Shown here piece after piece: positions 1 through 39,488 of a stretch of 41,265 bases of DNA. The position numbers and the translations under genes are program-made. Each line of letters opens with the position of its first letter. Position 1 is the first letter of the stretch. Source of the DNA: a virus (lineage: Duplodnaviria; Heunggongvirae; Uroviricota; Caudoviricetes); IMG/VR virus record IMGVR_UViG_2521172717_000006; one strand, written 5' to 3'. Below the pieces are notes generated by a model, which did not search any database, was not told where the DNA came from, and saw only the letters and a list, made by a program, of their open reading frames with translations.

Positions 1-1158
1 ATGCTCACCGTTAAGCAGATTGAAGCAGCAAAGCCGAAAGAAAAACCATACCGCCTACTCGATGGTAATGGACTGTACCTTTATGTCCCTGTGTCAGGGA
101 AAAAGGTATGGCAGCTTCGCTACAAGATTGACGGTAAGGAGAAAATCCTGACCGTAGGAAAATACCCGCTTATGACTTTGCAAGAGGCAAGGGATAAAGC
201 ATGGACTGCGAGGAAAGACATCTCGGTCGGAATCGATCCGGTAAAAGCGAAAAAGGCTTCGTCTAACAACAATTCCTTTAGCGCCATTTACAAGGAATGG
301 TACGAGCACAAGAAGCAAGTCTGGTCTGTAGGGTATGCGACTGAACTTGCCAAAATGTTTGACGACGACATTTTACCTATCATTGGCGGCCTTGAAATTC
401 AGGATATTGAGCCGATGCAACTGCTGGAAGTAATCCGCAGGTTTGAAGATCGCGGTGCAATGGAGCGAGCCAACAAAGCCCGCAGAAGATGCGGCGAGGT
501 TTTCCGTTACGCTATTGTCACTGGTAGGGCTAAATATAACCCGGCACCTGACCTTGCTGACGCCATGAAGGGATACCGCAAGAAGAACTTCCCGTTTTTA
601 CCTGCCGACCAGATCCCGGCATTCAACAAAGCACTTGCAACATTTTCAGGAAGTATCGTATCGCTCATTGCGACCAAAGTTTTACGCTACACAGCCCTAA
701 GAACGAAAGAGCTTCGTTCCATGCAATGGAAGAACGTCGATTTTGAAAACAGGATTATCACCATCGACGCCAGTGTGATGAAGGGACGCAAAATTCATGT
801 TGTCCCGATGTCAGACCAGGTGGTTGAACTTCTCACTACGCTAAGCTCAATCACTAAACCAGTATCAGAGTTTGTTTTTGCCGGGCGAAACGATAAGAAA
901 AAGCCAATCTGCGAGAACGCGGTATTGCTTGTGATCAAACAAATCGGCTATGAGGGTCTGGAAAGCGGTCACGGATTCAGGCATGAATTCAGCACGATTA
1001 TGAACGAGCACGAATGGCCTGCTGACGCTATTGAAGTGCAACTTGCACATGCCAACGGCGGATCTGTGCGCGGGATTTACAACCATGCTCAGTATCTAGA
1101 TAAGCGCAGAGAAATGATGCAGTGGTGGGCTGACTGGATTGATGAAAAGGTGGAGTGA
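1..1158 (+). CDS. intS: Tyrosine site-specific integrase (P4/IntS-type), 385 aa
   Basis: N-terminal MLTVKQIEAAKPKEKPYRLLDGNGLYLYV typical of P4-family integrases; C-terminal R...HxxR...Y catalytic motifs (HGFRHEF, RGIYNHAQY) present; ORF begins at window position 1. Confidence 0.9.
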   Translation: MLTVKQIEAAKPKEKPYRLLDGNGLYLYVPVSGKKVWQLRYKIDGKEKILTVGKYPLMTLQEARDKAWTARKDISVGIDPVKAKKASSNNNSFSAIYKEWYEHKKQVWSVGYATELAKMFDDDILPIIGGLEIQDIEPMQLLEVIRRFEDRGAMERANKARRRCGEVFRYAIVTGRAKYNPAPDLADAMKGYRKKNFPFLPADQIPAFNKALATFSGSIVSLIATKVLRYTALRTKELRSMQWKNVDFENRIITIDASVMKGRKIHVVPMSDQVVELLTTLSSITKPVSEFVFAGRNDKKKPICENAVLLVIKQIGYEGLESGHGFRHEFSTIMNEHEWPADAIEVQLAHANGGSVRGIYNHAQYLDKRREMMQWWADWIDEKVE

Positions 1159-1391: not shown

Positions 1392-2531
1392 ATGGTGTGC
1401 ATTATGATCTTTGAGGCGCAAAGTCTTTATTTATATTTTTTGTCTCTTTTAGCCGTTGTGTTATGTATTACACTATTGACACGATATAACTATTTTTCTC
1501 ACATCAACTTTGCAAGTAACAGGTATTTCTTTATAGACGGATTGCGTGGGATAGCTGCGTTCAGCGTTCTTATTAATCACGGCGCTCATACAATTATTAC
1601 CAATGGAGTTCAGCCCATATTTATAGACTTCACAAAATACTCCATCACAGGGAATATGGGTAGCTTCGGTGTACAGATTTTCTTTTGCATTACAGGATTT
1701 TTGTTCTTTGATAAATTAATAAAAGGAAATAATACATTTGACTGGAATAAATTTTATGTTGCTCGGATAAAAAGACTCGTTCCTCTATATATGCTTACTG
1801 CGCTTTTGGTGGCAATTTTAGCTATTATATTATCCGGCAGTTCAGCAAGGCTTAACTTTGTTGATTTTTCAAGCTTCCTAAATTTTTTTGGGTTTGGATT
1901 TTTGGGCACAGAAATCTTCATTGGCTCTTTTAACGCATCAGGATTAAATGCGGTGATATGGACTCTACCGTATGAATGGAGGTTTTATTTAATTTTCCCT
2001 CTATTATCGATTGCCATCGCAAGCAAGAGATATGGTATGTTTGCCATTTCCGCAGTAATGTTACTTGCGGCAAGAGACTTTATGACAGAATTTGTTTTGT
2101 GGCCATATTTTATAGTTGGCGCCTTAGGTGCATATATATTCAATAAATCTTATGTTAACATTGATGATAAATATTGGATATTCTCATTCATTTCTTTCAT
2201 AGCTATTTTTGTTATCTTCTGCTCTTCCGCAGACAGCTATGGACGAATCAGATTTGCATGCATTTCATTACTATTTATAATGGTACTTATAACTAAACCA
2301 AAAATATTTAAAATAAAATCATTAGTTTATTTAGGTGAGGCAAGTTATAGTCTTTATTTGCTGCATTTGCCTATCATGGCTATAGTAATGAGAACAATAA
2401 ATAATTTCTATAACCTATCGAGCATGTCTACTGTGAATTACACAATTTTGATAGCCTTTATTGCATCTCTGTGTAGCGTTATTTCCTGTATCTGTTTTAA
2501 GAATTTTGAGTGGAGATTCATTAAAAAGTAA
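1392..2531 (+). CDS. Acyltransferase family 3 integral membrane protein, O-antigen acetyltransferase-like (serotype-conversion candidate)
   Basis: FIDGLRGIAAFSVLINH motif near N-terminus typical of acyltransferase_3; multi-pass hydrophobic profile; visibly AT-rich codon usage; track ORF starts at TTG 1377, first ATG is 1392 (1404 also possible). Confidence 0.8.
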   Translation: MVCIMIFEAQSLYLYFLSLLAVVLCITLLTRYNYFSHINFASNRYFFIDGLRGIAAFSVLINHGAHTIITNGVQPIFIDFTKYSITGNMGSFGVQIFFCITGFLFFDKLIKGNNTFDWNKFYVARIKRLVPLYMLTALLVAILAIILSGSSARLNFVDFSSFLNFFGFGFLGTEIFIGSFNASGLNAVIWTLPYEWRFYLIFPLLSIAIASKRYGMFAISAVMLLAARDFMTEFVLWPYFIVGALGAYIFNKSYVNIDDKYWIFSFISFIAIFVIFCSSADSYGRIRFACISLLFIMVLITKPKIFKIKSLVYLGEASYSLYLLHLPIMAIVMRTINNFYNLSSMSTVNYTILIAFIASLCSVISCICFKNFEWRFIKK

Positions 2532-19743: not shown

Positions 19744-20229
19744 TTATTTCAGTTCGTTACCAGGCATTTCTTTTAGCTCTTTCAAATGACAACGATTGAG
19801 ACTAAACCACTCCCCGTGCGACCTATAGTTGTAATATTTTTGGTGCAATTTGGTTTCAAGCTCTCTATCGGCCGGAATCTTTGCAATTAGATTTAGCTTC
19901 CCACCACTCATGCGAGATATCTCTGAAATCCGTTTATTAACCCTGCGACTAAACCCTATTTTTGTTAGCCCACTATCTTCAGCATGCAGAACGTACACAT
20001 ATGATTTTTGCGAAGCACTGGGTGCGACTTTGTTGTAATTAATCATGTCAAACATGAAGCCTTGCTTTAGCAAAGTTTCAAAAAAGATAGAATTAACACA
20101 CCCATTCCTTCTCAGCTCTGCACTTAGCTTGTCAATTTCCTCTATGATGTCGCCAGACCCCTTTCCACTTATAAGAAAATCTTGGTACATGCGACCAATT
20201 CTTGAGGTAATTTCAACAAAGTTATTCAT
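19744..20229 (-). CDS. T5orf172 (GIY-YIG-like) domain protein with unknown N-terminal domain; moron
   Basis: C-terminal half YVYVLHAEDSGLTKIGFSRRVNKRISEISRM...LETKLHQKYYNYRSHGEWFSL fits the T5orf172 pattern (YVY...KIG...R...E..LH...R...GEWF); AAGG RBS; AT-rich; occupies lambda bor-position after Rz. Confidence 0.7.
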   Translation of the reverse strand: MNNFVEITSRIGRMYQDFLISGKGSGDIIEEIDKLSAELRRNGCVNSIFFETLLKQGFMFDMINYNKVAPSASQKSYVYVLHAEDSGLTKIGFSRRVNKRISEISRMSGGKLNLIAKIPADRELETKLHQKYYNYRSHGEWFSLNRCHLKELKEMPGNELK

Positions 20230-20572: not shown

Positions 20573-21040
20573 TCATCGAAGGCATTGCGTCCTGATGTAT
20601 TCCTGAAGCGTTCTCAGTGATGTTTGGTCGCGTATAATTCCGTCCCGGACACCGAGAACGTTTCGTCCAGCAACTGGAGAGAGCTCGACGGTGGCATCAT
20701 TGCCCATGCCGGAGGCGCCGGAGGTTTCGGCTGAGGATGGCACAGGGCATTTTCCTTTGACGAGCACCCTGCCACCATTATCAAGCTTGCGCCGAAGAGC
20801 ATCATTTTCAGCTTTTGCATCAGCTAACTCCTTCGTGTATTTAGCATCGAGTGCATCAGCAGCACGCTGGCGTTGCTGCATGTCAGTAATGGTGGCGGTC
20901 GCCTGCTTCAGCTCACTGACTTTTTTATCGCGCTGCTCTTTGTAGGTAATGGCGTTATCACGGTAATGATTAACCGCCCATGACAGGCAGACGATGATGC
21001 AGATAACCAGAGCGGAGATAATCGCGGTTAATCTGCTCAT
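20573..21040 (-). CDS. Rz: Rz i-spanin
   Basis: [34 protein letters not shown] nearly identical to remembered lambda Rz N-terminus. Confidence 0.9.
20614..20820 (-). CDS. Rz1: Rz1 o-spanin lipoprotein embedded in Rz in alternate frame
   Basis: [21 protein letters not shown] lipobox and proline-rich [16 protein letters not shown] like lambda Rz1. Confidence 0.75.
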
Positions 21041-21513
21041 ACCTCAATCTCTCTTACCGTTCCGCCAGCTTCTTTGAATTTTGCAATCAGGCTGTCAGCC
21101 TTATGCTCGAACTGACCGTAACCAGCCCCCGGCAGTGAAGCCCAGATATTGCTGCAACGGTCGATAGCCTGACGGATATCACCGCGATCAATCATCGGTA
21201 AAGCGCCACGCTCTTTAATCTGTTGCAATGCCACAGCGTCCTGGCTTTTCGGAGAGAAGTCTTTCAGGCCAAGCTGCTTACGATAGGCATCCCACCAACG
21301 GGAAAGAAGCTGGTAACGTCCGGCTGCTGTTGATTTTAGTTTGGGGTTTAGCGTGACAAGTTTGCGAGGGTGATCGGAGTAATCAGTGAATAGCTCTCCG
21401 CCAACAATGACGTCATAACCATGATTTCTGGTTTTCTGTCGTCCGTTATCTGTTCCCTCTGACCACGCCAGCATATCGAGGAACGCCTTACGTTGATTAT
21501 TGATTTCCACCAT
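21037..21513 (-). CDS. R: Endolysin, lambda R-type lytic transglycosylase
   Basis: [53 protein letters not shown] essentially lambda R from memory. Confidence 0.95.
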
Positions 21514-21820
21514 CTTCTACTCCGGCTTTTTTAGCAGCGAAGCGTTTGATAAGCGAACCAATCGAGTCAGTACCGATGTAGCCGATGAACACGCTCGTTA
21601 TATAAGCGAGATTGCTACTTAGTCCGGCGAAGTCGAGAAGGTCACGAATGAACCAGGCGATAATGGCGCACATCGTTGCGTCGATTACTGTTTTTGTAAA
21701 CGCACCGCCATTATATCTGCCGCGAAGGTACGCCATTGCAAACGCAAGGATTGCCCCGATGCCTTGTTCCTTTGCCGCGAGAATGGCGGCTAACAGGTCA
21801 TGTTTTTCTGGCATCTTCAT
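21497..21820 (-). CDS. S: Holin, lambda S-type with dual start (MKM)
   Basis: [67 protein letters not shown] matches lambda S; 107 aa. Confidence 0.95.
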
Positions 21821-22111
21821 GTCTTACCCCCAATAAGGGGATTTGCTCTATTTAATTAGGAATAAGGTCGATTACTGATAGAACAAATCCAGGCTACTGT
21901 GTTTAGTAATCAGATTTGTTCGTGACCGATATGCACGGGCAAAACGGCAGGAGGTTGTTAGCGCAACCTCATGCCACCCGCTTTCACGAAGCCAGCCATT
22001 GCGCTGGTTTTCTTTTATGCAAAGCACACCGCACCGTAGCCACAGCGGATAAGGTGATTATTTTTGTCTGTCTGGTATTTGGTTTGATGTGCTTTCAGAA
22101 AGGTCGTGATT

Positions 22112-22147
22112 AAAACGCAAAAAGCCCCGAGCTATTAACTCAGGGCT
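22112..22147 (-). terminator. tR'-like terminator of short late leader transcript
   Basis: Minus-strand AGCCCTGAG-ttaatag-CTCGGGGCT hairpin followed by T-run, downstream of pR'-like promoter. Confidence 0.6.
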
Positions 22148-22182
22148 TTATTTAACGAGTGCATTTATCCATCGTTGGGTCA

Positions 22183-22211
22183 AATTTACCCAACTTTATT
22201 CAAAAAGTCAA
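22183..22211 (-). promoter_or_regulatory. Late promoter pR'-like (-35 TTGACT, 17-nt spacer, -10 TAAATT) with adjacent qut region
   Basis: Hexamers read on minus strand between Q stop and S start; arrangement as in lambda pR'. Confidence 0.6.
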
Positions 22212-22253
22212 TATCATGCCGTAAAGATGTTGCCATCCGTGGCAATCATGCTG

Positions 22254-22877
22254 CTAACGTGTGACCGCATTCAAAATGTTGTCTGCGATTGACTCTTCTT
22301 TGTGGCATTGCACCACCAGAGCGTCATACAGCGGCTTAACAGTGCGTGACCAGGTTGGTTGGGTAAGATTTGGGATTAGCATCGTCACAGCGCGATATGC
22401 GGCGCTTGCTGGCATCCTTGAATAGCCGACACCTTTGCATCTTCCGCACTCTTTCTCAACAACTCTCCCCCACTGCTCTGTTTTTGCTATATCAACCGCA
22501 CGGCCTGTACCGTGGCAATCTCTGCATCTTGCGCCCGGCGTCGCGGCACTACGGCAATAATCCGCATAAGCGAATGTTGCGAGCACTTGCAGTACCTTTG
22601 CCTTAGTATTTCCTTCAAGCTTTGCCACACCACGGTATTTCCCCGATACCTTGTGTGCAAATTGCATCAGATAGTTGATAGCCTTTTGTTTGTCGTTCTG
22701 GCTGAGTTCATGCTTACCGCAGAATGCAGCCATTCCGAATCCGGCTTGTGATTGCGCCATCCCCATAGCAGCCATCACATCAGTACCGGAAAGAGAGTCA
22801 GAAGCCGTAGCCCGTGGTGAGTCGCTCATCATCGGGCTTTTTGGCGAATGAAATTTAGCTACACTTTCGAGTCTCAT
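22254..22877 (-). CDS. Q: Late gene antiterminator Q (lambda-type)
   Basis: 207 aa, the lambda Q length as remembered, with Cys-rich zinc motif (CRDCHGTG...CGRCKGVG); position upstream of pR' and lysis genes. Confidence 0.9.
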   Translation of the reverse strand: MRLESVAKFHSPKSPMMSDSPRATASDSLSGTDVMAAMGMAQSQAGFGMAAFCGKHELSQNDKQKAINYLMQFAHKVSGKYRGVAKLEGNTKAKVLQVLATFAYADYCRSAATPGARCRDCHGTGRAVDIAKTEQWGRVVEKECGRCKGVGYSRMPASAAYRAVTMLIPNLTQPTWSRTVKPLYDALVVQCHKEESIADNILNAVTR

Positions 22878-23062
22878 GGTCTACCCCTCTTGCCCTGTTT
22901 GACCATCAGGACGCCGTTAACTATTACGTGACGCTCACCTTTGCTGTCTCGGTTGTACTTGAGCACTGTTCCTCTTGCACAGGAAAGCATCCTCGCCACC
23001 TCGGTCTGATTGCCTCGTGTCTGGATAAGAAGCTCTGGTATCGTTTGAATTGTGGCGTTCAT
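22874..23062 (-). CDS. ninH: NinH-like small DNA-binding protein
   Basis: 62 aa, position immediately upstream of Q; helix-turn-helix-like segment. Confidence 0.75.
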   Translation of the reverse strand: MNATIQTIPELLIQTRGNQTEVARMLSCARGTVLKYNRDSKGERHVIVNGVLMVKQGKRGRP

Positions 23063-23421
23063 GCGTTCTCCAGTTCGGTGATTTTTATTCCAAGCCGTCC
23101 GCCTGGTACTTTCACACCACGAATTACGCGAATGTCATCGAATTGCTCGTCGTCTTCCGCAAATCCGGCGTGGATAAGGGAATCGAGTAAACCTTTCAGG
23201 ATGTTATCGAGGTCGCGGCGGCGGGAGTCTGGAACGTCTGCGATGACTTTGATGCGGAGTCGTGATTTGGTGAAAATGTCTAACTTGAGTTGGCGGATGA
23301 TTTGCTGAACGTCTTTTCGGTATTTCTGGCCTTTATCGCTGATGTAGTATTGGCTTCCCCGTCTTCGCCAGTAGGTGTTCACCGACGGCGGGTATGGAAG
23401 CACAAACTGATATTCGTTCAT
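23059..23421 (-). CDS. rusA: RusA Holliday junction resolvase
   Basis: 120 aa; PYPPSVNTYW and DSRRRDLDNILKGLLDSL motifs match RusA family. Confidence 0.85.
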   Translation of the reverse strand: MNEYQFVLPYPPSVNTYWRRRGSQYYISDKGQKYRKDVQQIIRQLKLDIFTKSRLRIKVIADVPDSRRRDLDNILKGLLDSLIHAGFAEDDEQFDDIRVIRGVKVPGGRLGIKITELENA

Positions 23422-23708
23422 GGCTTAATCTTCCCCTCCTTCAGCAGTATCGCCTGCGTCCTGATCACGCCTTCCAGGTGGTAAAGTCTGGCGTCTTTGT
23501 TGTCGAGGTTATGGGTGCGTCGGTCGATTTCATCGTGACACGCGCTACAAGCCCATGCGCCGATCAGGTCGTCAGGTTTCATTCCCGTTCCGCAAATTCC
23601 AGCCATCCGGTAATGTGCCAGAACTGTAGTTTCAGGGTTGCCATTGCATACGCCGTAAATACGTACCTGGCATTCTCTGCCGCGTGCTTCTTTGCGTAGG
23701 TTAGCCAT
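23418..23708 (-). CDS. ybcO: YbcO-like (DUF1364) Cys-rich protein
   Basis: 96 aa with RGRECQVRIYGVCNGNPET...CSACHDEIDRR; position between antirepressor and rusA as in DLP12-type nin regions. Confidence 0.6.
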   Translation of the reverse strand: MANLRKEARGRECQVRIYGVCNGNPETTVLAHYRMAGICGTGMKPDDLIGAWACSACHDEIDRRTHNLDNKDARLYHLEGVIRTQAILLKEGKIKP

Positions 23709-24429
23709 TAAGCAGCCTCCCCGGTTACTTTCAGCATTCCGTTATCGAGCAGCTTTCTGGTCAGCCACTGTTGACCACGCCCGGTGATTTTTGTGGTGAA
23801 CGATATCTGTATTCCGTGATTTGTGTTGACCGCTGTTTCTTTCACTGTGAAATAGCCGCGATCCATATATTCCTGCATTGGCACATTGCGCCGGGAACCT
23901 GAAGCAATAAGGATTTTGTGATCGCGCATCCACGCAAACAGTTTGTTTGGACCAATACCAACAACCTTTGCAAAGTTTCCAATCAAAATTCCGCTGGCCT
24001 CGCCAACGCGATCGGCAAACTCAACTTTAGGTGCGGCAATTGCGAGCTGGTTTTCCAGTTGCATTTTCTGCTCAGCAAGATCAGCAGCAAGGCGCAACGC
24101 TTCCGGTAACGTTTTGGGATATTAACCGCAGTTTCTTCAAGCTCTCGCCAACGGTCAACAAGACGAGCGGTGAACTCTGGCGACAACTGGGCAACAACGA
24201 CAATACTGTCTCGCTTACCTTGTTCGCCCTCGAAGACGTAATGCTCGTACTGAACACTGAACCCTAAGTTATTGATTCTTTCGGAAACCTCAATTTGAGG
24301 AAGCCGGATAACACCATTTTTAGCCAGCGTTTCGATGGTACGTTTCACATTGTCATGACGCTTACCCACCAACTCAGCGATTTCAATGCTTGTCATTTTG
24401 ATGGCATTGCCATTTATTAACTCATTCAT
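23708..24429 (-). pseudogene. Rha / KilA-C antirepressor-like gene interrupted by a frameshift (two overlapping frames)
   Basis: N-terminal Rha domain ORF (24429 down to 23983) and C-terminal KilA-C-like ORF (from about 24120 down to 23708) overlap by about 115 nt in different frames; switch point lies in a CCCAAAAC run near 24113..24124; second frame has no ATG (track start is TTG). Confidence 0.55.
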
Positions 24430-24597
24430 CGTCTTCTTCCTCGTACATTGAGCTATTCGGATCGCTCATCAGCTCTGCGCAGCAATCGGAGCATACGTGA
24501 ACTTCCAGCACATGCAGTTTCTGACCGCAGTTAGCGCACGTTAAAGCTCGCTCGACGCTTTCTTTCTGGTATTGAAGGGATTGGGATGGGCTAAGCA

Positions 24598-24957
24598 TTA
24601 TTGGATTCTCTGCATCATGAGAAAGACAATCATGGCGGCGCGGAGGGGATTTTCATGTATAGCTCGCTTAGATTTACAGTAGGCCACACCGCGTGCACCC
24701 CACTCGTCTTCATCGAGATTGATAATGCTAATCCTGTATTTTTCAATAATCGGCCATGCGTCTGCTGGGTTTGCGCATGGGTTAAAGGAACCGCGCTCAA
24801 CTTCTACTTCAACTGCGTCTCCGTTTACAATGTCTCCCTCAAATGAGACAAACACCATATCGCCATTCTCACCTTCTTTGTAATCCGGTGATCCGTTATG
24901 AATAGCTTCGAATACAGCCACGTTAATTTCAAAATCACTTAACTGTGAATAATCCAT
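24598..24957 (-). CDS. Hypothetical acidic nin-region protein, about 119 aa
   Basis: ATG with AGGAA RBS overlapping ninE stop; function not recognisable. Confidence 0.5.
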   Translation of the reverse strand: MDYSQLSDFEINVAVFEAIHNGSPDYKEGENGDMVFVSFEGDIVNGDAVEVEVERGSFNPCANPADAWPIIEKYRISIINLDEDEWGARGVAYCKSKRAIHENPLRAAMIVFLMMQRIQ

Positions 24958-24959
24958 TG

Positions 24960-25136
24960 TCATTTCCTCGCACGATGTCTTAGCCACCGGATATCCCACA
25001 GGTGAGCCGTGTAGTTGAAGGTTTTTACGTCAGATTCTTTTGGGATTGGCTTGCGTTTATTTCTGGAGCGTTTCGTTGGAAGGTATTTGCAGTTTTCGCA
25101 GATGATGTCGGTGATACTTCGTCGCTGTCGTCTCAT
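24960..25136 (-). CDS. ninE: NinE
   Basis: [58 protein letters not shown] matches remembered lambda NinE; start at M31 of track ORF. Confidence 0.8.
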
Positions 25137-25660
25137 GCTGCCCTCCTGACGCCCTGCCCGATCGCCATCAATGCCGCTTTGGATACGGTAGTAAACATCC
25201 GTCGAGGACTGATGAACGGTCGCCAAATCAGCAGCATGGAGCCTTTGCTGTTTCCCTTCTTCTCCAGCCCTGTCGATGGTTCGATAAAATTAATCCGTCC
25301 ATCAGTGATAATGCGAACTTCGTCGACACTCTCCAGAGCCTTGCTGAACCATCCGACTGACATATCCTCTGGAACAAGCATAACTACCGTCTGTCGCTGT
25401 TGTATGCACTGCTCAGCGGCTTTTTCCACCCACGGCCTGATATTGCTGTACGGTGGGTTATTCCAGATTGCACCGTGGCTTATCCACTCAGAATTTAGCG
25501 CGTCGTCAGCCTCAGTTAGCCAGTGAGCGCACAGAGCATTTTTGTCGCTAGCTGCCGAATCCAGCCAGAATCCAAACTCAATATCCAGTGCATCAAAAAG
25601 CCAAAGCGGCGTTTGCCAGCAGTCCTTGTCGTGTGCTGGCGTATTTGATTTGATAGTCAT
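25133..25660 (-). CDS. Phage-type DNA N6-adenine methyltransferase (orphan)
   Basis: NPPY catalytic motif ([10 protein letters not shown]) and overall size typical of phage Dam-like methyltransferases; no adjacent restriction gene. Confidence 0.8.
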
Positions 25661-26103
25661 GCAGCCCTACCTTTTCGTTGTGACCATTCATACTCTCGCC
25701 GGGAGTCATCACTCCACCGCACGTTGCGCTCTGAGCCGAACCAAAACATGATTTCGATAAGCTCAGTCATGCTGGCCTTTCGCATTTTGCTGGTACGCAC
25801 GCCAAGCATGACAACGCCACCGTCGATACCAGGCACACTTCGTTGCTCCAGTTTTTTGGTCTTAAGCCACAGGGCAGTAAACAGGTCTTTCCAGTCCTCC
25901 GGCGCAAGTCTCTGTCCATGCCAAAGCACCTGACGTGATACGTCCTGCAATAACGCCCACATAAGGCGGTTTTGAGGATTGCTCCGCTTGGGTTCTTTAA
26001 CGTGGACTTCGTGAGGTGACTTGTCGTCGATCGGAAGTGAGAGTATTGCGTCTATGGCGTTGTTTCTGATTGCTTCGTTGCGAAGCATATATATTTGCTT
26101 CAT
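25657..26103 (-). CDS. ninB: NinB (Orf-family recombination mediator)
   Basis: QNRLMWALLQDVSRQVLWHGQRL and C-terminal RNVRWSDDSRREYEW...RAA resemble lambda NinB. Confidence 0.85.
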   Translation of the reverse strand: MKQIYMLRNEAIRNNAIDAILSLPIDDKSPHEVHVKEPKRSNPQNRLMWALLQDVSRQVLWHGQRLAPEDWKDLFTALWLKTKKLEQRSVPGIDGGVVMLGVRTSKMRKASMTELIEIMFWFGSERNVRWSDDSRREYEWSQRKGRAA

Positions 26104-26143
26104 CGTTACTCCTTCACTTTGACTCCATCAGCGTGCTGGGGTG

Positions 26144-26347
26144 TTAAGCGTCGTCGCCCTGAACCATCACGTACTGACCGCATGAGTCGCAGCAGTACTC
26201 ATTCATGTTTCTTCCATCATCTGTCCAGTTATCGCTTCCGCATTTGTTGCAAAGGAGTTTTCTAAACTGCGGCGGAGTTATTCTTACCTTTCCGAAATTA
26301 GTTACCCATTGAGTTGCATCGTCGAATCTATAACTATTAACTTTCAT
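26144..26347 (-). CDS. Small Cys-rich hypothetical protein, 67 aa
   Basis: ATG after GGGGGG RBS (M23 of track ORF); CNKCGSD...CCDSCG zinc-ribbon-like. Confidence 0.5.
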   Translation of the reverse strand: MKVNSYRFDDATQWVTNFGKVRITPPQFRKLLCNKCGSDNWTDDGRNMNEYCCDSCGQYVMVQGDDA

Positions 26348-26440
26348 TTTTCTGTGCCCCCCAATAAACCTATATTTTAAATAAAGGTCAGGAGACATAA
26401 TCGGCTCGCTCACACTCTCACCTCTCGCTTCCGGTCCAAT

Positions 26441-26468
26441 AAAAAAGGGCTACTGTGTAAATAGCCCC
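26441..26468 (-). terminator. Rho-independent terminator downstream of helicase gene (tR2-like position)
   Basis: Minus-strand GGGCTA-tttacacag-TAGCCC hairpin followed by TTTTTT. Confidence 0.6.
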
Positions 26469-26497
26469 TGTTATTAGCTCAGTGATGTAGATGGTCA

Positions 26498-27934
26498 TCA
26501 GAATCCTCCTTTCTTCTTGGACTGCGGTTCCTCGCGTTCACGGCGGCGAATTTCAGCAGACTGTTGGTCTGTGTCATAAATAGCGCCATTTGCCTGAATG
26601 CAATACACCGTACCGGTATTGCCATGACGATTGAGGCGAAGGATTAGTTCGGTTTCACCAGGAGGAACGCTGTCATCAAAAGCGCCTTCACGATGGATCC
26701 CGACCCAATAATCGCAATCCTGTTCAATCTGCCCTGTATCGCGCGAGTCACTTGGTAATGGGCGTTTATTGGTTCGGCTTTCCAATGCGCGGTTAAGCTG
26801 TGTCAGAAGCACAACAACGCAATCAAGCTCTTTGGCAAGGTTCTTCAGTCCTTTGGTGATCATGCCGTAAGCAAGGTCGTTGCGATCGGCCTTCTCAGCG
26901 GTCATTAGTGTCAGGTAATCGACCAGAATCATGCCAACACATCCTTTTTCTCGTTTGATTCGACGGCTTTCGCTGACGATTTGAGCCAGAGATAATCCCG
27001 GCGTGTCGTCGATGTAAAGCAGGTCGATTTCACTCAAGCGATTGGCTGTTTCGATCGCCCTGTTGAAGTCACCATCGTAATCACCCTGATAGCCGTCATC
27101 AGCGTCATTTGTCGCCGGAAGGTAAAAAATATTCGGGTTAACACCTGACTTCTGTCCCACCAGTTTTTCCAGTATCTGGTCACCTGGCATTTCAAGGCTG
27201 AACATCAGAGCGGGCTTTTTCTCATGCACTGCGCAGTTGATTGCCATCTGGCTGTATAGCGTCGTTTTCCCCATCTTAGGGCGAGCGCCAATGACAAACA
27301 GAGAGCCTTTCACCAGACCTTTCGGTGACAGCATCCTGTCCAGCGATGGGATCCCTGTGCTCATTCCTCGTTGTTCGCCTGACGGGTCAAATCGCTTCTC
27401 AAGGTCGCTAACCCAGTCTTCCATGACCTCACCAAATGAGCGAAGGCCGCGACGCGATCCGGTTTTTGCATGGTCTGTCAGTTGCGTGAAAATCGACTGA
27501 ATAGCTTCGTACTTCTGCGTTGCAGTCATTCCGTTGCGGGAATAGAGCAATTCCGTCGCTTCAGTCATGCGGTTGATGGCGTAGCGTTCCATTGCGGTTT
27601 CACGAACCTGCATTGCATAGGCAACGATGTTTGCTGCGCTTGGCGTGTTCTTTGCGATCTCAGCGATATAAGCAAAACCGCCAACAGACGCCGTTAACGA
27701 TTTACGCTCCAGTTCATCGAAAAGCGTCAGGCCATCTACTTGCTTTTGCTCCCGGTGCATTCTGGTTATTTCTTCGAAAAGAATTTTGTGTGGTCGGCTG
27801 TAAAATGAATCAGGCTTCAGCATCGCCAGAACTTTCTGGACGCGCTCACTGCTGTCATCATCCAGAAGCAATCCACCAATCACCGCCTGCTCTGCCTCGA
27901 TGCTATGGGGTGGCGCATAAAAATTATCGGTCAT
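26498..27934 (-). CDS. Replicative DNA helicase, DnaB family (P22 gene 12-like)
   Basis: N-terminal PHSIEAEQAVIGGLLLD DnaB signature; Walker A GARPKMGKT; start at ATG (M6 of track ORF) with GAGG RBS. Confidence 0.9.
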   Translation of the reverse strand: MTDNFYAPPHSIEAEQAVIGGLLLDDDSSERVQKVLAMLKPDSFYSRPHKILFEEITRMHREQKQVDGLTLFDELERKSLTASVGGFAYIAEIAKNTPSAANIVAYAMQVRETAMERYAINRMTEATELLYSRNGMTATQKYEAIQSIFTQLTDHAKTGSRRGLRSFGEVMEDWVSDLEKRFDPSGEQRGMSTGIPSLDRMLSPKGLVKGSLFVIGARPKMGKTTLYSQMAINCAVHEKKPALMFSLEMPGDQILEKLVGQKSGVNPNIFYLPATNDADDGYQGDYDGDFNRAIETANRLSEIDLLYIDDTPGLSLAQIVSESRRIKREKGCVGMILVDYLTLMTAEKADRNDLAYGMITKGLKNLAKELDCVVVLLTQLNRALESRTNKRPLPSDSRDTGQIEQDCDYWVGIHREGAFDDSVPPGETELILRLNRHGNTGTVYCIQANGAIYDTDQQSAEIRRREREEPQSKKKGGF

Positions 27935-39287: not shown

Positions 39288-39488
39288 ATGCAACACGAAC
39301 TACAGCCTGATTCCCTGGTTGATTTGAAATTCATCATGGCTGATACTGGCTTCGGTAAAACCTTCATCTATGACCGGATTAAGTCCGGCGACCTGCCAAA
39401 AGCCAAAGTTATCCACGGGCGAGCAAGATGGTTATATCGTGACCATTGTGAATTCAAAAATAAGCTCTTAAGCCGCGCTAATGGGTAA
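39288..39488 (+). CDS. torI: Excisionase / recombination directionality factor, TorI-type (66 aa)
   Basis: Sequence MQHELQPDSLVDLKFIMADTGFGKTFIYDRIKSGDLPKAKVIHGRARWLYRDHCEFKNKLLSRANG recognised as TorI/AlpA-family winged-helix Xis. Confidence 0.9.
   Translation: MQHELQPDSLVDLKFIMADTGFGKTFIYDRIKSGDLPKAKVIHGRARWLYRDHCEFKNKLLSRANG

Follow-up and report, generated by a model that had tools for sequence, protein, structure and literature searches.

The roi gene of the prophage at argW in the laboratory strain Escherichia coli W is, in all likelihood, an ordinary strain-specific pseudogene that arose by the recent deletion of a single A and whose loss was probably neutral; nothing was found that contradicts this reading. 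The frameshift is already recorded in public annotation, where RefSeq describes the gene as 'frameshifted', and is in that respect ordinary and known. In the course of events that we propose, one A was lost from a run of five (CCCAAAAAC becoming CCCAAAAC), thereby inactivating roi: translation from the normal ATG (24429) would yield a 148-aa protein made up of the complete Rha-type DNA-binding domain and a 42-residue out-of-frame tail, the KilAC/ANT domain would remain essentially untranslated, the rest of the prophage has stayed intact, and the loss would have become fixed in the W lineage by neutral decay or drift.

The roi gene and its surroundings in the W prophage

The window, by which we mean the whole stretch of DNA that was analysed (41,265 nt), corresponds to positions 2618292-2659556 of NC_017635.1 (E. 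coli W). It is base-for-base identical to that record from 20650 to 27480, its identity to W outside this segment resting on gene coordinates and on strain B-766 (1 mismatch in 37.6 kb), and all of its ORF coordinates match the RefSeq annotation of the same stretch. It holds a complete P22/HK620-like prophage, located at argW and adjoining the csc sucrose genes of W, that runs in the order integrase, acyltransferase, tailspike, head and packaging genes, lysis genes, Q, nin region, helicase, cII/cro/cI, recombination genes and torI/xis; in Archer et al. it appears as 'Argw*W', a lambdoid prophage at argW (PMC3032704). Within the nin region, roi is placed between ninF and the series formed by a DUF1364 gene, rusA, ninH and Q, an order that is identical in W, STEC384 and HK620 (Table 1). 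Since ribosomes reading the deletion allele would stop at 23983, that is, 275 nt early, translational coupling to the downstream DUF1364 gene, if there is any, would be lost.

Table 1. Positions in the window of roi, its reading frames and lesion, its neighbours and other features mentioned in the text
Feature	Position	Strand	Remarks
intS	1-1158	+	
Acyltransferase gene	1404-2531	+	accessory, moron-like
GIY-YIG/T5orf172 nuclease gene	19744-20229	-	accessory, moron-like
DUF1364/YbcO-family gene, downstream neighbour of roi	23418..23708	-	start ATG shares 1 nt with the stop codon of roi (TAATG)
roi pseudogene (Rha N-domain and KilAC/ANT C-domain), 722 nt	23708..24429	-	RefSeq ECW_RS13170, 'frameshifted'
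Open stretch of the -1 frame	23708..24121	-	interdomain linker and complete KilAC/ANT domain
Zero-frame ORF, 148 aa	23983..24429	-	residues 1-106 are authentic Roi, including the whole Rha domain (12-99)
Terminator-like hairpin and T-rich stretch	23992-24008	-	inside the C-terminal coding part of roi
Site of the 1-nt deletion	24112..24118	-	placed by alignments to intact alleles; C CCA AAA (C3A4) in the window
ninF, upstream neighbour of roi	24422..24598	-	8-nt overlap with the roi start
torI excisionase gene	39288-39488	+	

Some further observations concern the prophage at large. The integrase and excisionase genes, intS and torI, lie at its opposite ends, so that the phage genome must have attP between int and xis, the arrangement described for KplE1/CPS-53, HK620 and Sf6; as the window begins at the intS ATG, attL and argW fall outside it. 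The acyltransferase gene lies between integrase and tailspike, which in Sf6 and P22-like phages is the slot of the O-antigen modification genes, and the GIY-YIG/T5orf172 nuclease gene has the lysis genes on one side and the small terminase gene on the other. A tRNA scan found 0 genes, comparison of the whole window with Rfam gave 0 matches, and a promoter scan around roi returned 0 sites. A terminator-like hairpin, CGTTGGCGAGGCCAGCG, with a T-rich stretch following it, occurs just before the shifted-frame stop; it is also present in intact alleles and hence is probably coincidental.

The roi span leaves a remainder of 2 when its length is divided by three, and its two domains are read in different frames. 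The zero-frame product starts with MNELINGNAIK, reaches ...ETAVNIPK and continues as RYRKRCALLLILLSRKCNW...; what follows residue 106 is an out-of-frame tail of 42 aa (tail peptide RYRKRCALLLILLSRK...), after which comes a stop codon. The Phage_pRha domain (Pfam PF09669) covers residues 12-99 of this ORF, with an E value of 3e-9 and 37.8 bits against a cut-off of 29.9. In the -1 frame, where the preceding stop is a TAA at 24124-24122, the sequence from 24121 to 23708 encodes ...LRLAADLAEQKMQLENQLAIAAPKVEF... up to the stop codon and includes a complete ANT/KilAC domain (Pfam PF03374, residues 126-228, E 1.9e-33); counted from a TTG at 24097, this C-terminal frame (24097..23708, minus strand) comprises 129 aa, (M/L)RLAADLAEQKMQLENQLAIAAPKVEF.... 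The initial annotation had described a Rha frame and a KilA-C-like frame overlapping by about 115 nt, the former running on into nonsense and the latter encoding a well-formed domain, with a switch near 24113..24124 at which a single-base indel would restore a protein of about 240 aa, and in all of this it was accurate: the ORFs overlap over 115 nt (23983..24097, minus strand), the tail and the domain are as given above, and the lesion and its repair are those set out below. It erred in holding that the C-terminal frame has no ATG, for one occurs in frame at 24064 (the Met of EQKMQLEN) in addition to the TTG at 24097. No convincing Shine-Dalgarno sequence stands upstream of either of these two candidate starts, gene callers left the C-terminal stretch uncalled in public contigs, and this part of the gene has no credible start of its own.

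The deletion lies in a CCCAAAA(A)C run (CCCAAAAC; TTTTGGG on the plus strand at 24112-24118), which corresponds to codons 105-107 and belongs to the linker joining Rha to ANT. The run is C3A4 in the window, C3A5 in the nearest intact allele, that of STEC384, and C4A4 in the HK620 roi, the aligned sequences being ATCCC-AAAACG, ATCCCAAAAACG and ATCCCCAAAACG, respectively. Between the window and STEC384 there is one gap and not a single substitution across 832 columns, and insertion of one A produces a 240-aa ORF that is identical at 240/240 positions to WP_001003991.1 of STEC384; since the gap is the only difference and its repair restores the protein entirely, the lesion is the very recent loss of one base from an A5 run. 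Once repaired, the protein aligns with phrog_63 over residues 1-239 (E 1.1e-98), while a sequence search of intact Roi against PDB gave 0 matches and an NCBIfam search 0 families. Each half of the gene is a 100% match to the corresponding half of one known single protein, which takes the case for a split gene far beyond chance. With its pRha domain, its ANT/KilAC domain and its nin-region position, the window copy has what is expected of the Roi family except that it is not one unbroken ORF of about 240 codons, the domains lying in different frames, and since it departs from the family in this respect only, it is to be classed as a pseudogene copy of a Roi/Rha-KilAC family member. As is expected of an indel pseudogene, one indel restores the intact ORF, and the lesion is both independently reproducible and restricted to one lineage.

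Occurrence of the deletion among genomes

A query of 831 nt across roi found 100% matches in four complete genomes, namely W, B-766 and two that are labelled DH5alpha, and matches of 95-99.9% in hundreds of further genomes, in which every record examined, PSJ-36 excepted, carries one extra base. With an 81-nt core as query, these four were again the only ones at 100% among the 465 complete genomes that matched. Sixty records, evenly spread down the ranking, were sampled from the 466 complete-genome records that matched, and the extra base was present in all 60 except one W-lineage record and PSJ-36; no other deletion at the C3A4 site was seen among these 60. An intact roi of 723 nt is the norm: at least 80% of the query is covered in 214 phage records and in 967 E. 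coli genomes, and HK620, HK022, CUS-3 and Stx phages are among the phages that carry it; a search for natively split homologues with an equal overlap was negative, the homologues being single 723-nt ORFs. Among the records examined, the deletion is thus confined to the W-type prophage. In the RefSeq annotations of W, B-766 and CP026085 the CDS is marked as a frameshifted pseudogene, and in B-766 and CP026085, the two whose surroundings were examined, the W-type prophage adjoins the csc sucrose genes of W, both being of the W lineage.

The two records labelled 'DH5alpha' (NZ_CP026085.1 and NZ_CM135829.1; 4.83 Mb) match the roi query at 100%, including the deletion. Because CP026085 has the csc genes as well as the W-type prophage, it belongs to the W lineage, and it would seem to be an E. 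coli W derivative under a wrong label and not the K-12 strain DH5alpha; CM135829 is probably a mislabelled W derivative too.

The roi of PSJ-36 (NZ_AP027648.1, positions 1228-1949 of the extract) is itself frameshifted, independently, and is annotated so. Its lesion is a 1-nt deletion that turns GAGAG into GAGA and is located 24 nt upstream of the one in W; the C4A4 run is unaffected, and over the 81-nt core its allele is 93.9% identical to the window. Furthermore, IS629 insertions interrupt roi in the Stx2a phage types PST1-3 and PST1-6 (PMC4587872). Repeated and different lesions in a dispensable nin-region gene bear the signature of ordinary decay. Two special explanations for the site were also considered. 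A mutational hotspot at the run is not supported, the only other frameshift found, that of PSJ-36, being located elsewhere; nor does the site resemble a phase-variable homopolymer locus, for which a tract of about 7 nt or more and coexisting on and off lengths are expected, since the tract is only A4 and has the same length in all four complete assemblies that bear the allele and in the 24 contigs that were read.

Competing readings of the two frames

The initial annotation had left the choice between an inactivating mutation in an otherwise intact prophage, a sequencing error at a homopolymer and programmed slippage. Only the first agrees with the evidence, roi being the sole pseudogene among the 59 annotated features of the region; the second is at odds with the recurrence of the allele in four complete assemblies, with Illumina validation and with 262 contigs, and the third with homologues that are single ORFs and with the lack of a stimulatory structure.

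As roi lies in the dispensable nin region and has been disrupted independently in other phages, neutral decay or drift is the most likely reason for its loss, and nothing suggests that roi is needed in the phage life cycle of wild-type hosts. The fate of the truncated protein, the level of leakage and the neutrality of the loss are what we infer here, and the 148-aa Rha-domain protein, or full-length Roi made in traces, may keep some residual function. The W argW prophage offers one more instance of the repeated loss of a dispensable nin-region gene, which matters very little in itself and is chiefly of use as a clean check on annotation.

Selection rather than decay might be invoked if the split were functional, that is, if a Rha-only protein, possibly together with a separately initiated KilAC fragment, were useful and the deletion had been favored, for instance because full-length Roi hampers the phage or its host. 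Roi is a DNA-binding protein to which inhibition of lytic growth in IHF mutants is attributed (Clerget and Boccard 1996, cited by PMC3430580 and PMC4587872), the frameshift falls within the linker, at codon 107, Rha occupying residues 12-99 and ANT residues 126-228, so that the N-terminal domain is left whole, and half-only PHROG families exist, such as phrog_9438, with a profile of 121 positions, and phrog_4936. Against this stand the C-terminal frame, which lacks a convincing start or ribosome-binding site and is skipped by gene callers, the 42-aa tail, which is simply out-of-frame sequence, and the distribution of the allele, there being no sign that a split arrangement is kept in diverged lineages, and one very recent mutation in one lineage carrying no signal of selection. 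We therefore regard a selected truncation as very unlikely, albeit the least unlikely of the alternatives to decay.

The deletion has left behind a motif that is a minor curiosity. In ATC CCA AAA CGT, an in-frame X_XXY_YYZ heptamer, C_CCA_AAA, remains at 24118..24112 (minus strand), and a -1 slip on it continues as ACG TTA CCG... and reads I-P-K-T-L-P-E, which is exactly the wild-type sequence; the junction peptide to be expected of full-length Roi made from the W allele is ...ETAVNIPKTLPEALR. In reporter assays in E. coli, CCCAAAA without a stimulator gave 0.192% of -1 frameshifting, against a background of about 0.055% in the absence of both motif and stimulator, and the level on CCCAAAA reached 0.44% when IS911 stimulators were present and 16.9% in the case of the IS3 pseudoknot (Sharma et al., PMC4066793). 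Searches for stimulators around the roi heptamer were negative: neither the 70 nt nor the 120 nt that follow it fold more stably than dinucleotide-shuffled sequence (z of +0.64 and +0.69, respectively), and inspection of the 8-15 nt upstream showed no Shine-Dalgarno-like element (GGAGG/AGGA). With the heptamer still in frame, a -1 slip by about 0.2% of ribosomes may yield Roi of wild-type sequence, and since there is neither a stimulatory fold nor a Shine-Dalgarno-like element, an incidental leak of about 0.2% is our best estimate, one that draws on reporter data from a different sequence context and denotes leakage that is not programmed. The W allele could in this respect serve as a natural test of the amount of full-length protein that an unstimulated C_CCA_AAA rescues. 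That the heptamer acts, by accident, as a working low-level recoding site, so that mostly Rha-only protein and a little full-length Roi, in amounts that are regulated or depend on context, alter induction or lytic growth, seems to us very unlikely, and more so than a selected truncation.

More doubtful again, and indeed highly improbable, is programmed -1 frameshifting, whereby the W allele would be decoded by design into two products, a Rha-only protein of 148 aa and, through tandem slippage on the heptamer, a Rha-KilAC fusion of 240 aa. It is true that C_CCA_AAA is a proper zero-frame X_XXY_YYZ motif placed in the ORF overlap, that a -1 slip on it restores the wild-type sequence and that CCCAAAA is measurably shift-prone in E. 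coli (PMC4066793). Of the features of a programmed -1 site, however, the heptamer in the overlap is present whereas stimulator and conservation are not: the region downstream of the heptamer has no fold better than shuffles and the region upstream no Shine-Dalgarno-like element, the two-frame arrangement is found in the W-type prophage only, as opposed to hundreds of single-ORF homologues, and a single base separates the W allele from the intact one, which leaves no room for a co-evolved recoding signal. Moreover, the independent frameshift of PSJ-36 has a different location, and the sequence there is not slippery.

Scarcely credible, finally, and the least probable reading of all, is a sequencing or assembly error in a gene that is in reality intact, for even though the indel falls in a short homopolymer and the first W genome was obtained by Roche/454, which is prone to homopolymer miscalls (PMC3032704), the run is just 4-5 nt long, that genome was validated against independent Illumina GAII data (PMC3032704), the base count is identical in three other complete assemblies, and gene calls on 262 contigs (376 index blocks of public assemblies) give precisely this truncated protein, among them many Logan assemblies built from separate SRA runs. 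The deletion is likewise present in B-766, whose assembly was deposited separately and departs from the window at 1 SNP in 37.6 kb; the gene neighbourhood is identical in all 24 of the longest contigs that were read out of the 262; a Logan contig, SRR32004608, shows full identity with the window across 12.4 kb; and a large protein collection names the 148-aa product 'Phage regulatory protein, Rha-like protein [Escherichia coli W]'. Taken together, these sequence records show that the deletion is a real mutation and not a sequencing error. The B-766 SNP is a G>T at 26150, in the gap between ninB and the helicase gene (26104-26497), where some annotations place a hypothetical ORF of 270 nt and RefSeq W has none.

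Comparison with related genes and recoding sites

The slippery sequence of the W allele shares with dnaX (A_AAA_AAG) and with the transposase sites of IS911 and IS3 an in-frame X_XXY_YYZ heptamer that joins two overlapping frames. Unlike those sites, it has no hairpin, pseudoknot or upstream Shine-Dalgarno element, its arrangement is not conserved, and a frameshifting level of only about 0.2% would be expected of it.

Among intact relatives, the roi of HK620 (AAK28878.1, 'DNA-binding protein Roi') has 98.6% DNA identity to the 831-nt query, which comprises roi and its flanks, and that of HK022 91.5%. The Roi proteins of both phages share the Rha and KilAC architecture, and in HK620 the gene likewise lies between ninF and the DUF1364 gene and rusA. 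The HK620 roi is a single ORF of 723 nt, whereas the window copy, at 722 nt, has one base fewer and as a result cannot encode the 240-aa protein in one frame. The intact copy of STEC384, WP_001003991.1, is a 240-aa 'phage antirepressor KilAC domain-containing protein', and it resides in a differently assembled mosaic prophage whose replication module is another one and which lacks a Dam methylase gene. The nearest parallels to the W allele itself are the independently inactivated roi genes of PSJ-36 and of the Stx2a phage types PST1-3 and PST1-6, where, as in W, the prophages are otherwise retained; they differ from W in the kind of lesion, which is the shortening of GAGAG to GAGA in PSJ-36 and the insertion of an insertion sequence in the Stx2a phages.
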